64,000 bases of DNA from a virus. Lineage: Duplodnaviria > Caudoviricetes. The notes below the pieces were generated by a model, which saw only the letters and a list, made by a program, of their open reading frames with translations, ran no database searches and was not told where the DNA came from. Below, piece after piece: positions 1 through 4,057 of the stretch (position 1 is its first letter; each line of letters begins with the position of its first letter). The stretch covers positions 1 to 64,000 of IMG/VR virus record IMGVR_UViG_3300048581_000044. The stretch is one strand, 5' to 3'. The position numbers and the translations under genes are program-made.

Positions 1-876
1 GACCATACCCGAGCCCATGATGATAGCGCGAGTGACGAGATGGACCGTGGCGTCTACTTGGTCGGATGAGGCATCGTCGTTACCGGAGAAGTCTTTGAGT
101 TCCGTGCGCCATGCTTCGAGCCAGGGGGCATAGGTAGGGGAAAGGACGCGGTGCTGACGAAACCATCCTTGGACGGAACCGGCGGTTTTTAGCGTAACGC
201 TGTTAACTGCGCGAGCACCTTTGGAGGCGGTGGCGGGCATTGGGACGATTGGAATGCCTGAGGATTCTAGGGATTGGATAAGGGAAATGCCCGAGGCTTT
301 CTTTTCGATTAAGACCTCTTGCGGACGCCAGAGCTGGTAAAGGGTTTTGGCTGCGTTGACCAAACCGCCCCAATCGACACGACGGCGGAAGACATCTAGG
401 ATGAGCACGTCGAAATGATAATCACAAGGACCGACGATGGCGGGGTTTTCGCCACGATGGTAGGCTTGACAGGGGACGATTAAGGCCGTGACGCAGACGG
501 TGTGCGCGGCTTGGAGAGACGTGGAGAAAGCCGTGTCCCAAGCCTGAAGGACACAATGCCCTTGCGAGACAAAATCTCGGACGTAAGGGGACGGCATTCC
601 GAGAGCGAGTTCAGATGGAGAGAACTGAACGCCGCGGACGAGGCACTGATAAAAGGAATCAAGATCGTCGGCTAGGAAGATTGAGCCTTGGCGCGAGCCA
701 GGACGGCATTGATAAGTTGCCTCGAAGACATCGGGCGAGGAGCGTTTAATGATTAAGACTTCAGAGCGCTTTTGCTCGGACTCTGGCCAGTAAAAACCCA
801 TGCCTTTGGGATCAATGCCATAAGGCATTCGAACGCGATAGATGCGGCGAGGGGAGTCGTTGTGAGTGGAAGGCAT
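1..876 (-). CDS. terL: Terminase large subunit, C-terminal RNase H-like nuclease half (runs off the window edge; absent from the ORF track)
   Basis: Hand translation from ATG at 876 (RBS-like CAGGAAAG upstream) is open to position 1: MPSTHNDSPRRIYRVRMPYGIDPKGMGFYWPESEQKR...QAWDTAFS...VLIEKKASG...DDASSDQVDA. WDTA, IEKKASG and DxxDA are TerL nuclease motifs. Confidence 0.88.
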   Translation of the reverse strand, partial: MPSTHNDSPRRIYRVRMPYGIDPKGMGFYWPESEQKRSEVLIIKRSSPDVFEATYQCRPGSRQGSIFLADDLDSFYQCLVRGVQFSPSELALGMPSPYVRDFVSQGHCVLQAWDTAFSTSLQAAHTVCVTALIVPCQAYHRGENPAIVGPCDYHFDVLILDVFRRRVDWGGLVNAAKTLYQLWRPQEVLIEKKASGISLIQSLESSGIPIVPMPATASKGARAVNSVTLKTAGSVQGWFRQHRVLSPTYAPWLEAWRTELKDFSGNDDASSDQVDATVHLVTRAIIMGSGMV

Positions 877-901: not shown

Positions 902-1564
902 TCAAGCCTCAACATTTATAAGCTCTCCAGGACGATGAAGGACAAACTTGTGCTTGTAAAAGCTACCAACTTTTGTATGACCAAGTGCTAGCATTTCAGC
1001 TTTCACGCGATTTTTTGTAGCCTTCTGTGCGACTTGTTTTCCGTTTGCATCCAACCACCGAGGGTAAGGGCCTGTACGTCCTACGTACAACCAGTTAGCT
1101 GCACGATAAATCTGTCCAAAATGGTTTTGGCTTTCGTCTGCATAAGTGACAAGCGTTACAAAGCGATTGTCTGACCAAATGCGCCTAACAGAATGTGCTA
1201 ACAGAAAAGAGGCCGCGTTTTTTGGAACGTCCGGTAAGATAACCAGCCGTGTTAATGAAAGGACTTTCTTCCAGTTAAGCTTATTGACGCTCTCACAAGC
1301 GACACGCGTTGGTGGAAGCCACCACGCTACGCCCGCTAACTGCCCAGAGACACGATTGTATAGCCCATGCATATAGCAGCAAGTGTTGCTGCCTCCGTGT
1401 GCATAATGCCACTGCTTAACAAGCGCCTGACCTTCTTTTAGCGGTGCATCCGCAACAAGCCAGTCACGCTTTTGGAGCAGCAAGATCGGAATCGAACCGT
1501 CTTCCTTCTGTTGGACAACAGAAAGCTCTACCAATGAGCTATTGCTGCAAAGCCTCTTCAACAT
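902..1564 (-). CDS. mom: Mom-family (GNAT fold) adenine-modification enzyme
   Basis: Motifs WHY, LTRLVILPDVPKNAASFLL and VTYADESQNHFGQIYRAANW match the Mu Mom-like family. The start is uncertain (ATG 1564 or TTG 1483), and both overlap or precede the tRNA-like element. Confidence 0.8.
   Translation of the reverse strand: MLKRLCSNSSLVELSVVQQKEDGSIPILLLQKRDWLVADAPLKEGQALVKQWHYAHGGSNTCCYMHGLYNRVSGQLAGVAWWLPPTRVACESVNKLNWKKVLSLTRLVILPDVPKNAASFLLAHSVRRIWSDNRFVTLVTYADESQNHFGQIYRAANWLYVGRTGPYPRWLDANGKQVAQKATKNRVKAEMLALGHTKVGSFYKHKFVLHRPGELINVEA
1473..1548 (-). tRNA. tRNA-Gly-like cloverleaf with an 8-nt anticodon loop (UUGUCCAA) and a bulged T-stem; atypical tRNA or tRNA-like element
   Basis: Reverse complement reads GCAGCAA TA GCTC ATTGGTA GAGC T TTCTG TTGTCCAA CAGAA GGAA GACGG TTCGATT CCG(A)TC TTGCTGC T CCA: 7-bp acceptor stem, D arm, TTCGA loop, encoded CCA. 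U73 and G1-C72/C2-G71 are Gly-like identity elements. Confidence 0.85.
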
Positions 1565-1573
1565 TCAAACACC

Positions 1574-3259
1574 CTAGATAATGTCCCTCTCAGGCTCAGA
1601 GAAGATAAGCTTGGACTCTTCAGCAAGCGCGCTTTTTAACGCTTCTTCTGAAGGCTTTAACAATGCCTCATCCGAACCAACGTTCTCAAACCCAACAGCT
1701 TGAATCATCGAACGTGCGTCTTCGGACTTGGGGATGCCTAAACAGGCAGGATGCTCTCCACGCATCATTTCTGTAAAGACACATTCTAAGCCTTCGGGAA
1801 TCGTAACGTCCCAATACAGATAATCCGCCTTCTCGCGAATGTTAGGAAGCTCCATAACAACCCATTCGCCTGTGCGCTTGAGATGGCCATAGATGTCTTC
1901 ATCGTGCCAACGGCGGCCTGCAAAGATAAATCTCGCACCGCGCGGATCAGCGCGGCCTAAGATTTGAGAATAAAACGTATCGCGGACGCTTTTGCAGGCT
2001 TCAGCTGAGGAGGAGTTTTCCTTATCATGCAAGTCGTCCCCGATAATAATCCGCGCGTGAACGCCGGTTAGGCGCTTAGACGAAAGCCCAGCCGCAAGAT
2101 AAGAAGCATCAGGGTCGCCAGCCGCGTGCCCAGAGACAAACATCCCGCGCTCGGTGGACCAGCCACGGCCTTTGTCAGGGAGGACTTGCGGGAAAGCAGC
2201 TTTCCAGCCAGGAGCGTGTTCAACCCATTCCATAACCGCTGACATGAAGCCTTGCATAAGGGCTTCACCAGCCGAAATCCCGACGATGGTTGTGTCAGGG
2301 ACTTGGCCAAGCATGTAAGCAGGGAAGACAGTAGAGAGGAGCGCAGAGTTATGCGTGACGATGTTGTTTTCGATAACAAACAACCCAGCAGGATGATCGA
2401 TGTTGATGCAGACGGAAGGGGACTCGAATGCTTCCTGGTGAATAGACATGATCTCTAAGCTGGCGAGATCGTTGTATGTAGAGCTGCATTGCTGCACGTA
2501 CCATTTTACGCGATTGCCTCTTGGCGCATGTTTATAGAGGCAAATCTCCTCAGTCGTGCGAATGCGCCAGTCAAGGTCTACGTTTCCAAGCTTGAAGTCC
2601 TTATTATAGACCTTCCATAGGTGATTCCCATTGGCGCGGATTAAACAGCCATCGGCAAAGTTTAGACGGTAGAGGCGGCTTAAAGGCTGCTCGAACACGC
2701 CACGGACCTTAACCCAAGTCTTCCCGTCAGGGATCATCACGAAGTCAGATGTTGTAAGCGCCCCCATGCGAAGCCAACCGCGCTTGGTAAGGACTTTGGT
2801 ATCGGGGTGCAGGGCTTTGCCCGACCCTGGGCCGATTACGATTAGGAGCTTTTTGATACGAGGGTCAGAGAGGGCGAAGGCGGGGTATTGCAGGTGAGGC
2901 GGAAAGGAAAACCCACGTGCGTGATACATGAGGTTGTAGAAGGTGATTAAGCCGACCGCGTTATTAGGGATCGTGGAGGCAAGACGATACGTAGGGGCGT
3001 TGCGACCTTGGCTGATCGCGGGGGAAGCCACGCCGGGAGATAAGGCTTCGCCAGAACCATACGGAGAGGCGGCGGGGGAGGAGGCCGGGGGAGGAAGATC
3101 GTCTTCTAAACCGGAAGTTAGAAGCTTTTGACGCTCCTTTAAATCCCATTGTGCTTTGATGAAGTCAGGATCGCGTGAGCGGGGCGCAGCCTCGGAGTCG
3201 GGGCGGGCTTTGGGCGGCCGACCGCGTTTCTTTGGAAGGATTGGCAGGAGATCACGCAC
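1574..3259 (-). CDS. terL: Terminase large subunit, N-terminal ATPase half, intein-containing
   Basis: After intein removal Walker A reads IGPGSGK|S. Also Walker B IIIGDD and the coupling-motif region AGRRWHDED. The ORF stops before the nuclease domain. Confidence 0.9.
   Translation of the reverse strand: MRDLLPILPKKRGRPPKARPDSEAAPRSRDPDFIKAQWDLKERQKLLTSGLEDDLPPPASSPAASPYGSGEALSPGVASPAISQGRNAPTYRLASTIPNNAVGLITFYNLMYHARGFSFPPHLQYPAFALSDPRIKKLLIVIGPGSGKALHPDTKVLTKRGWLRMGALTTSDFVMIPDGKTWVKVRGVFEQPLSRLYRLNFADGCLIRANGNHLWKVYNKDFKLGNVDLDWRIRTTEEICLYKHAPRGNRVKWYVQQCSSTYNDLASLEIMSIHQEAFESPSVCINIDHPAGLFVIENNIVTHNSALLSTVFPAYMLGQVPDTTIVGISAGEALMQGFMSAVMEWVEHAPGWKAAFPQVLPDKGRGWSTERGMFVSGHAAGDPDASYLAAGLSSKRLTGVHARIIIGDDLHDKENSSSAEACKSVRDTFYSQILGRADPRGARFIFAGRRWHDEDIYGHLKRTGEWVVMELPNIREKADYLYWDVTIPEGLECVFTEMMRGEHPACLGIPKSEDARSMIQAVGFENVGSDEALLKPSEEALKSALAEESKLIFSEPERDII
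2348..2815 (-). mobile_element. 156-aa mini-intein with Ala1, class 3 (WCT) signature
   Basis: Starts ALHPDTKVLTKRGW immediately after GSGK and ends IVTHN|S. Block B H-L-W, block F SVCINID (Cys), block G Thr. No endonuclease motifs seen. Confidence 0.88.
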
Positions 3260-3738
3260 TATGAAACGTTCTCTTTCCAGTCTTCATCGACCTCAGCAAA
3301 GACCTCTGGCCCGAAAACAAGTTCCCCACGATAGGGAAGCTTTCCCGTTAGAGCAAGCTGATCGCCGTAATATGTGAGCGTAACGTGTGGGTGATAGTCG
3401 TCATAATCCCAAGACGCGCCTTTGTTGCAGAAGTCTATCCAGCGCAGCTCGAATTTGTTCGACGAAAAGAGCAGCACGACCGCGCCTTCGTCACCAAGTG
3501 GGGCGAGCTTTCTAACGCCATAGCCTTCAGGGATGATGACACGATTGCGTTTGGGCTTGAGATGACTCCAGTCGAACGCCTTTCGGCTGAAGGCCAAGGT
3601 AACGTGCATGTCGTCAGGAGAAAGCGGTTGCTCAAAGCCATTACGCTGTGCCCAAGCGAAGAGCGCTTTAGCGTTGAGAAGAGGACGGGAGACGTAGAGA
3701 GTTTTTGGACGGGCTTTTGCAAGCAGGGGCTTTTTCAT
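3259..3738 (-). CDS. 2H phosphoesterase, Acb1/T4 gp57B-like anti-CBASS nuclease
   Basis: Two HxT motifs (MHVTLAFS, PHVTLTY), plus TLYVSRPLLN and GASWD. ATG 3738 follows GGAGA. The stop TAG overlaps the terL GTG. Confidence 0.75.
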   Translation of the reverse strand: MKKPLLAKARPKTLYVSRPLLNAKALFAWAQRNGFEQPLSPDDMHVTLAFSRKAFDWSHLKPKRNRVIIPEGYGVRKLAPLGDEGAVVLLFSSNKFELRWIDFCNKGASWDYDDYHPHVTLTYYGDQLALTGKLPYRGELVFGPEVFAEVDEDWKENVS

Positions 3739-3739
3739 T

Positions 3740-4057
3740 TTAGTCTCCAGGACAGTGAACGCCTTCGGCACCGCTTTCAATTGCGTCTAGCGCAGCCTTA
3801 TCGAGCATCCGGTGGACAGGTGTGCTGCCGTCTTCTTCCTCTTGCGAGAGCGCACAGTCTATGGCTTGCGCAAAAACCAGCGGGTCAGTGACTTCGGGGT
3901 ATTCGAACTCGCCAGTTTCCTCGTTAAACAGCGAAAGGCTAGGATCAAACTCGATAGCGTGTGCGAGACAAGCAATGCCGATGGTGATTACAAGCCGTCC
4001 ACCAACGACTTGAACTTTAAGAGGCTCGTCTTCTGGCGAGAAGCTTACATCCAACAT
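3740..4057 (-). CDS. Hypothetical phage protein
   Basis: 105-aa acidic ORF tightly packed in the terminase operon. Confidence 0.6.
   Translation of the reverse strand: MLDVSFSPEDEPLKVQVVGGRLVITIGIACLAHAIEFDPSLSLFNEETGEFEYPEVTDPLVFAQAIDCALSQEEEDGSTPVHRMLDKAALDAIESGAEGVHCPGD

Follow-up and report, generated by a model that had tools for sequence, protein, structure and literature searches.

A tRNA-Gly-like element within the reading frame of phage mom genes, a candidate private glycine donor for the Mom enzyme

The locus described here belongs to IMGVR_UViG_3300048581_000044, an 89,137-bp viral contig (Duplodnaviria; Caudoviricetes) whose first 64,000 nucleotides (positions 1 to 64,000, hereafter the window) were analysed. 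It consists of a mom gene on the minus strand, the first codons of which form at the same time, and in the same orientation, a 76-nt tRNA-Gly-like element. Both the fold of this RNA and the open reading frame (ORF) that runs through it are conserved in many diverged phage mom genes, its glycine identity elements are kept, and its association with mom, whether at the 5' or the 3' end of the gene, is specific. The explanation that we favour, with a probability of roughly 0.6, is that the cassette is a two-in-one gene, which would encode a Mom-family enzyme and, in its first 31 codons, a dedicated non-decoding tRNA-Gly acting as the private donor of that enzyme.

A mom gene that begins with a tRNA

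Codons 6-31 of mom make up the element, which spans nt 17-92 of the 663-nt ORF, and the frame is open through the whole of it (Table 1). A first interpretation of the locus (hereafter the sequence-only reading) had placed the start codon inside the tRNA fold, but the ATG is upstream of the fold, 16 nt before tRNA position 1. The same reading had proposed that the frame continues from this ATG through the cloverleaf into Mom, and the ORF does match the Pfam Mom family from residue 35 onwards (E 2.4e-27, 96.4 bits against a cut-off of 27.1). Identity with the Mom protein of phage Mu is about 23%; R106 and S119 of the window protein align with Mu R111 and S124, and both residues are invariant in the alignment that includes Mu Mom. 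A search of the PDB with the single Mom sequence gave nothing, and the family profile succeeded, matching the Mom structure 8bv8_A at 6.8e-8. The same entry is the best Foldseek match (E 5e-10, template modelling score 0.61-0.66) of an AlphaFold2 model of the window protein, in which the predicted local distance difference test score stays below 50 for residues 1-26 and reaches about 90 in the Mom core. A profile score over the cut-off, a predicted GNAT-like Mom fold and the presence of the essential arginine and serine place the product within the Mom family.

Between the end of the tRNA and the conserved Mom region, the window ORF contains no ATG, GTG or TTG, and the TTG of codon 28 is the sole canonical start (ATG, GTG or TTG) near the conserved L-x-K-x-D-W N-terminus of Mom. 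The claim that this TTG is the only other start before the conserved motif has to be amended for the beginning of the ORF, where in-frame TTGs also occur at codons 2 and 11. In a public protein collection, the product of the gene appears as a protein of 156 aa (P0003), which starts at the ATG of codon 65. As had been anticipated for a start at this codon, the call loses the conserved N-terminal part of the Mom domain; it is the tRNA that makes gene callers mis-start the gene.

The complete 76-nt, CCA-ending cloverleaf of the sequence-only reading was recovered by several methods. ARAGORN reports it over its full length, with a 4-base anticodon (gtcc) and as the sole tRNA of the contig, Rfam RF00005 matches 1477..1548 (minus strand) with 31.8 bits (gathering threshold 29, E 9.5e-4), our own covariance model R1, built from 11 element sequences, scores it at 83.9 bits, and the minimum free energy (MFE) fold of its 161-nt context retains the cloverleaf. 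Membership in the tRNA family RF00005 is further backed by covariation in the relatives, which extends to all four helices. The peculiarities described at first sight were all found as well: G1-C72, C2-G71, the discriminator U73, an 8-nt anticodon loop UUGUCCAA, which alternatively folds as a 7-bp stem closing a GUCC tetraloop, and the bulged A, on the 3' side of the T stem. Moreover, the element carries A3-U70, U8, A14, G18-G19, a TTCGA T loop and the encoded CCA end.

In a canonical decoding tRNA the anticodon loop has 7 nt and includes U33, and the 5 bp of the T stem are uninterrupted; the element departs from both, since its loop has 8 nt, the loops of its relatives have 7 or 8 nt, with C33 or G33 in some, and the bulged A occurs in all members. 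The identity set of bacterial tRNA-Gly for the glycyl-tRNA synthetase (GlyRS) of Escherichia coli comprises G1-C72, C2-G71, G3-C70, U73, C35 and C36. As judged from its sequence, the window element would offer all of these except for the pair 3-70. In an alignment of 11 element sequences (A3), G3-C70 is present in 10/11 and U73 in 7/11, the others having A73.

Table 1. Features of the tRNA-mom cassette and its neighbours (window coordinates; SD, Shine-Dalgarno)
Feature	Positions	Strand	Remarks
mom ORF, 220 aa (663 nt)	902..1564	-	ATG 1564-1562; SD-like GGGTG 1574-1570
Mom core (Pfam match)	1010-1462	-	PF25680
In-frame TTG, codon 28, 3' acceptor strand	1481..1483	-	without SD; not conserved in relatives
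Mom as called in a public protein collection (P0003)	902-1372	-	156 aa
tRNA-Gly-like element, mom-embedded, 76 nt	1473..1548	-	ARAGORN, Rfam, own covariance model, MFE fold
Acceptor stem of the element	1548-1542 / 1483-1477	-	discriminator U 1476; encoded CCA 1475-1473
8-nt anticodon loop UUGUCCAA	1511..1518	-	C35 = 1514, C36 = 1513
Bulged A between T-stem positions 63 and 64	1486..1486	-	alignment A3 and other aligned members
Terminase large subunit (TerL), N-terminal ATPase half, upstream neighbour	1574..3259	-	tblastn against contiguous TerL of L006, L127-L130
Terminase large subunit, C-terminal nuclease half, downstream neighbour	1..876	-	Pfam Terminase_6C 6.2e-6; relatives
Intein-like insertion in terminase Walker A	2348-2815	-	156 aa
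Acb1 anti-CBASS phosphodiesterase gene	3259-3780	-	PF23474, E 5.9e-37

Conservation of the fold and of the frame across mom loci

The fold is under selection as RNA. Among the sequences of A3, 92.5% of the cells in paired columns are indeed paired and 14/21 pairs have changed on both sides, a result reached by 0/500 shuffles, and pairing falls to 40-48% in slid controls; the covariation across Mom homologue loci that had been proposed as a check is therefore present. The acceptor stem and the T stem (the latter paired around the bulge) are 100% paired, with compensatory changes in the T stem. G1, C2, U8, A9, G10, C35, the bulged A (A63) and C74-C75-A76, among others, are invariant, and G3-C70, C36, A37 and G38 nearly so. 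On the other hand, the bases that precede the anticodon, U33 (replaced by C or G in some), the length of the loop, the GG of the D loop and the sequence of the T loop are free to vary. The bulged A stands at the equivalent place in aligned family members outside A3 too. Column entropy is alike across the three codon positions (0.62, 0.81 and 0.76), and C2 and C35 fall on third codon positions, yet both are kept, which indicates conservation at the level of the RNA, not of the peptide.

The frame is kept as well. All of the 5'-embedded elements (16/16) share the same codon phase, G1 being the second base of a TGC or CGC codon, and they measure either 76 or 73 nt and nothing else. When their architecture is written as the lengths of region 8-26, anticodon loop and variable region, only 19/7/4, 18/8/4, 16/7/4 and 17/7/3 are found, the sum of which is always 30 or 27. 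An 8-nt loop occurs in 7 members of the family and a 7-nt loop in 10, so this feature is not preserved among the homologues, and every 8-nt loop, including that of the window, is coupled to a D region one nucleotide shorter. The extra base would then be a compensation that keeps mom in frame, and the anticodon loop of the window is best read, from these sequences, as carrying a frame-restoring insertion and not a quadruplet anticodon.

The absence of mom-frame stops in 11/11 loci is partly an ascertainment effect, as these loci were found through proteins that span the ORF. The frame test was consequently repeated on 9 loci chosen by the Mom core motif and the covariance model, without ORF calls. 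In all nine, the frame continues without a stop from the tRNA to the Mom core, as the sequence-only reading would have it, and 8/9 show an ATG or GTG 7-16 nt upstream of the element. This upstream start often overlaps the stop of the preceding gene (ATGA or TGATG), and most loci have no alternative start behind the tRNA. Together, these observations indicate that Mom is translated through the tRNA sequence; an independent downstream ATG, which would have spoken for a tRNA merely abutting mom, is not what the relatives show.

How widespread is the arrangement? Among cultured phages, the closest relative of the window Mom is found in Ralstonia phage C22 (60% identity); its gene lacks a tRNA, and the protein begins 9 codons ahead of the conserved D-W. 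Among 5.8 billion proteins searched there were 605 close Moms, and 14 of the best 120 homologues bear an N-terminal extension that aligns with the tRNA-encoded peptide of the window. This extension has the consensus ..DS..V..P..Q.G.GGS.PTS, GGSIP being the translation of the T loop. The DNA fetched for these homologues contained a tRNA-Gly-like sequence in every case, of which ARAGORN recognises about half, and 16 other sequence-distinct loci have the same element at the 5' end of mom, in an identical codon phase. For unbiased samples, Mom loci were picked solely by Mom core motifs and then scanned with R1, which matched 3/33 loci from IMG/VR (the window, L165 and L141) and 7/80 metagenome loci. 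The R1 scan detected no element at mom of the cultured phages Mu, C22, SplendidRed, BC-6, EniLVp02 and Darwin, nor at the Mom loci of four bacterial genomes or metagenome-assembled genomes. At the nucleotide level, exact and degenerate DNA patterns for the window tRNA had no match in the IMG/VR or metagenome collections, and a 14-mer of the anticodon arm gave 118 chance matches, none of them in a tRNA context.

A profile made from the peptide only collected 111 clusters at 50% identity, at least 54 of which are Mom proteins: the peptide precedes the core in 39 and follows it in 7, and 8 more are recognised by Pfam. Another 29 peptide-bearing clusters are fragments of less than 90 aa. About 28 longer proteins with the peptide are not recognisable as Mom, and one of them (P0125) has AP2 and HNH_3 domains, as in homing endonucleases; ORFs may be read through such tRNA-like elements in non-Mom contexts as well. 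At each locus the cassette has other, unrelated neighbours (DnaB, SNF2 helicase, Dam, a sigma factor, small ORFs), and since the neighbourhoods all differ, tRNA and mom travel as a unit. In the Mom tree the tRNA-bearing proteins cluster (7 changes, versus 13.4 in shuffles), and the window is joined to P0001 and P0002 with 98% support.

The element can also stand at the other end of the gene. In L141 (2339-2413) it lies at the 3' end of mom, with anticodon GCC and 56 bits under R1, and the mom ORF enters it in the same phase to stop within the T loop. This C-terminal arrangement of the peptide recurs in at least 7 protein clusters, so the linkage between element and mom is independent of the start codon.

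A cargo site within the terminase gene

In the window, the tRNA-mom cassette is located between the two halves of the large terminase subunit, the ATPase-half ORF stopping 7 nt ahead of the mom ATG. In related IMG/VR phages, terminase is one contiguous gene (L006, L127-L130), is split at the same point without cargo (L004, L126), or is split by unrelated cargo of 3.1 kb (L005) or at least 5.9 kb (L125). None of these relatives (L004-L006, L125-L130) has a tRNA or mom at the split, which marks the tRNA-mom cassette as cargo dropped into a hotspot: the split site is an insertion hotspot inside an essential gene. For the suggestion that modification is timed to packaging, the only link found is the position between the terminase halves, which the relatives do not share.

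No repeats flank the cassette and no integrase stands beside it, TerL halves being found on both sides; an origin from an att site or an integrative element was rejected on these two grounds. A scan for promoters and terminators found nothing specific to the cassette, and cultured phages yielded no blastn match to the region.

Other features of this neighbourhood deserve a record. The Walker A motif of terminase (GPGSGK / A...THN / S) is interrupted by an intein-like insertion, which is absent from L005 and L006 and bigger in L004; it resembles a mini-intein with an initial Ala, with a Pfam Intein_splicing score of just 11.7 bits (E 0.22). The nuclease ORF exits the start of the contig and resumes in frame at the other contig end (last ~300 bases); the roughly 90 residues encoded there are similar to the C-terminal end of the L004 homologue (LP.DW.PE ... 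DPY.GTC.RC.HDG), so that the 'linear' record looks like a complete circle cut in this gene. Directly upstream of terminase lies an Acb1 gene, a homologue of which is found at the equivalent place in L004.

A private glycine donor and its alternatives

Mom of phage Mu moves glycine from Gly-tRNA(Gly) to the N6 of adenine in double-stranded DNA, the product then rearranging on the base to 6-NcmdA (Silva et al. 2026, Nat Commun 17:4787, PMC13219725; preprint 2023). All three E. coli tRNA-Gly isoacceptors work in this reaction and Gly-tRNA(Ala) does not, the enzyme probably reading the acceptor end of the tRNA; the text of that study does not mention tRNA genes at mom loci (PMC13219725). The window Mom belongs to the same PF25680 family, has the same predicted fold (8bv8) and keeps both essential residues, whereas Mu has no tRNA gene at mom, uses the isoacceptors of its host and controls the gene via Com and a hairpin.

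Under the private-donor explanation, part of the mom transcripts would be cut by RNase P and 3' nucleases, freeing a 76-nt RNA whose CCA end is already encoded. The host GlyRS would charge this RNA, as is proposed because G1-C72, C2-G71, U73 and C35-C36 are kept, and the bulged T stem and the abnormal anticodon loop would keep the charged product away from EF-Tu and the ribosome. Mom would then draw on this private pool of Gly-tRNA to glycylate adenine N6 in DNA, with a rearrangement to 6-NcmdA as for Mu Mom. The T-stem pairs 49-65, 50-64 and 51-63 set the affinity for EF-Tu (PMC7826273), and the conserved bulge between 63 and 64 lies in this contact, which by analogy could serve to evade the factor. 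Given a start codon upstream of the tRNA and none behind it, processing would remove the start of Mom, and each transcript would be either translated to Mom or processed to donor tRNA, a partition that would also limit the amount of a potentially toxic enzyme. We regard this partition in cis as a probable consequence, and not the main function, of the embedded tRNA.

There is a cellular precedent for glycine carriers of this sort. In Staphylococcus aureus, non-proteogenic tRNA-Gly isoacceptors with weak T stems serve FmhB, FemA and FemB (Rietmeyer et al. 2020/21, PMC7826273): they are charged normally by GlyRS, bind EF-Tu poorly through their T stem and feed aminoacyl-transferases of GNAT fold outside translation. 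However, these are separate cellular genes with normal cloverleaves, where A-U pairs weaken the binding of EF-Tu, whereas the window RNA is phage-borne, would rely by analogy on a bulge in the T stem, and is contained in the ORF of its presumed enzyme.

Several points weigh against a donor role. About 90% of the close Mom relatives, including that of Ralstonia phage C22, are devoid of the element, and Mu Mom works with host tRNA-Gly, so that an embedded copy is not required for the chemistry. The window copy has A3-U70 in place of G3-C70, and the D and T loops are degenerate in many relatives, which could impair RNase P or GlyRS. The excision and charging of the embedded RNA and its use by Mom are steps that we infer, and the effect of the bulge on EF-Tu is likewise presumed by analogy. 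Moreover, a donor role alone leaves unexplained the placement of the RNA within the ORF instead of next to it.

A first alternative is a purely cis-acting tRNA mimic, the model of the sequence-only reading. In such a scenario the 5' fold would control only the synthesis of Mom and never carry glycine, be it by hindering the ribosome, by exposing the start codon to severing by RNase P, or through binding of Mom to the mom mRNA, in the way of ThrRS at thrS. Every 5'-embedded locus has its ATG 7-22 nt ahead of the acceptor stem, so the fold must be melted for initiation, and the only start would be lost on processing; besides, Mu mom is described as toxic and tightly controlled (PMC3378877), and Com is annotated as a translational regulator. 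In the thrS operator of E. coli and the Com-controlled hairpin of Mu mom, an RNA structure near the mRNA start governs the translation of a tRNA-binding protein (thrS) or of Mom itself (Mu), but these are partial mimics or hairpins in untranslated leaders, whereas the window has a complete CCA-ending cloverleaf with synthetase identity elements within coding sequence. A simple block needs neither the invariant C35, nor the near-invariant C36, nor an exact CCA, all of which are kept even at synonymous positions. A mimic of this kind does not account for the copies at the 3' end of mom, in L141 and the clusters mentioned above, and the ATG region of the window shows no significant sequestering fold (z = 0.70). 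We therefore consider a mimic without donor function rather unlikely, cis-acting control as a secondary effect being compatible with the private-donor explanation. Part of the switch put forward in the sequence-only reading stands, as the overlap is real and conserved and no usable downstream start exists, from which the mutual exclusion of processing and translation would follow; the GlyRS identity set and CCA that are kept, the use of Gly-tRNA(Gly) by Mom and the 3'-end copies favour a donor over a pure timing switch.

An ordinary translational tRNA-Gly of the phage, or a decoy or replacement against host anticodon nucleases as the sequence-only reading also entertained, adjoining mom by chance, is very unlikely. 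Phages often carry tRNAs, and the glycine identity elements and CCA are intact here; but this is the only tRNA in the genome, the family shows C33 or G33, 8-nt loops, the bulged T stem and frequent loss of the D-loop GG or of a canonical T loop, and the element is specifically fused to mom, with at least 54/111 peptide-bearing clusters being Mom and 29 of the others fragments.

Still less credible is a quadruplet-decoding tRNA, a +1 frameshift suppressor that would read GGAC/GGAU through an anticodon GUCC. The 8-nt loop with U at 33 and A after the four bases, as well as the 4-base anticodon given by ARAGORN, recall the suppressor tRNAs of sufD and SufB2 type, in which a Gly- or Pro-type tRNA has an extra nucleotide in the anticodon loop, and tRNAs with expanded loops are known frameshift suppressors in the literature. 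In the window family, however, the extra base is not conserved, the 5' bases of the loop are free, and the 8-nt state compensates the shortening of the D region, as fits the upkeep of an ORF frame. Moreover, the phage's own ORFs contain 97 in-frame GGA-C/T sites, no gene in need of such a shift was seen near the cassette, and the T stem is bulged in the region that contacts EF-Tu.

Finally, we give almost no credence to a decaying tRNA gene or att remnant that abuts mom by accident, its open frame being a coincidence, as the two single-base insertions of the window copy relative to a canonical tRNA, its low Rfam score and the fact that 25 open codons are not rare by chance are outweighed by strong covariation, conservation over many diverged lineages, 'defects' that are either conserved (bulge) or compensated (loop), full-length tRNA-like copies inside phage operons, and the absence of flanking repeats and of an adjoining integrase at the window cassette.

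The mom-embedded tRNA-Gly-like element is of a kind already known since 2011 from the ssrA islands of Dehalococcoides, where the first 150 bp of a mom homologue were reported to contain a 76-bp tRNA-Gly-like 'pseudo-tRNA', with no function proposed (McMurdie et al. 2011, BMC Genomics 12:287, PMC3146451). As in the window, that element measures 76 nt, has a predicted tRNA-Gly-like fold, lies in the 5' portion of a gene homologous to mom, is maintained from copy to copy and is mislabelled by annotation pipelines. The window and the 16 other loci have the same arrangement, a same-strand fold of some 76 nt within the first 150 bp of mom, and are likened to Dehalococcoides by this arrangement alone. 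The two differ in their setting: a Mom of 270 aa encoded in a Chloroflexi bacterium on integrative islands in one case and, in the window, a lytic-type 89-kb phage with the element between terminase halves and an 8-nt loop. In the literature searched, neither the link with a Gly-tRNA-dependent Mom, nor the T-stem bulge, nor the account of the 8-nt loop as frame compensation was found for embedded elements.

A further extension of the private-donor explanation, which we offer only tentatively and would sooner doubt than assert, is that the Mom of this clade is orthogonal to translation. It would recognise the A-bulged T arm and use exclusively a pool invisible to EF-Tu, from a self-limiting gene that yields either enzyme or co-substrate. 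Competition between the ribosome, starting 16 nt upstream, and RNase P would fix the ratio of enzyme to donor, and the frame would force the compensated indels, hence the 8-nt loop.

For genome annotation, these loci mean that mom genes with an embedded tRNA are truncated or mis-started by gene callers, while about half of the elements escape tRNA finders. In the cassette, moreover, a structured RNA gene and a protein frame are co-conserved on the same strand, which is rare, and the effect on tRNA architecture can be seen as compensated indels. It took until 2023-2026 for the glycine donor of Mom to be identified, in work that assumes that phages scavenge Gly-tRNA from the host. A widespread class of mom genes with a deformed tRNA-Gly of their own raises the questions of how Mom and EF-Tu compete, how toxicity is limited and which parts of the tRNA are read by Mom, and a natural, compact two-component cassette makes them testable.

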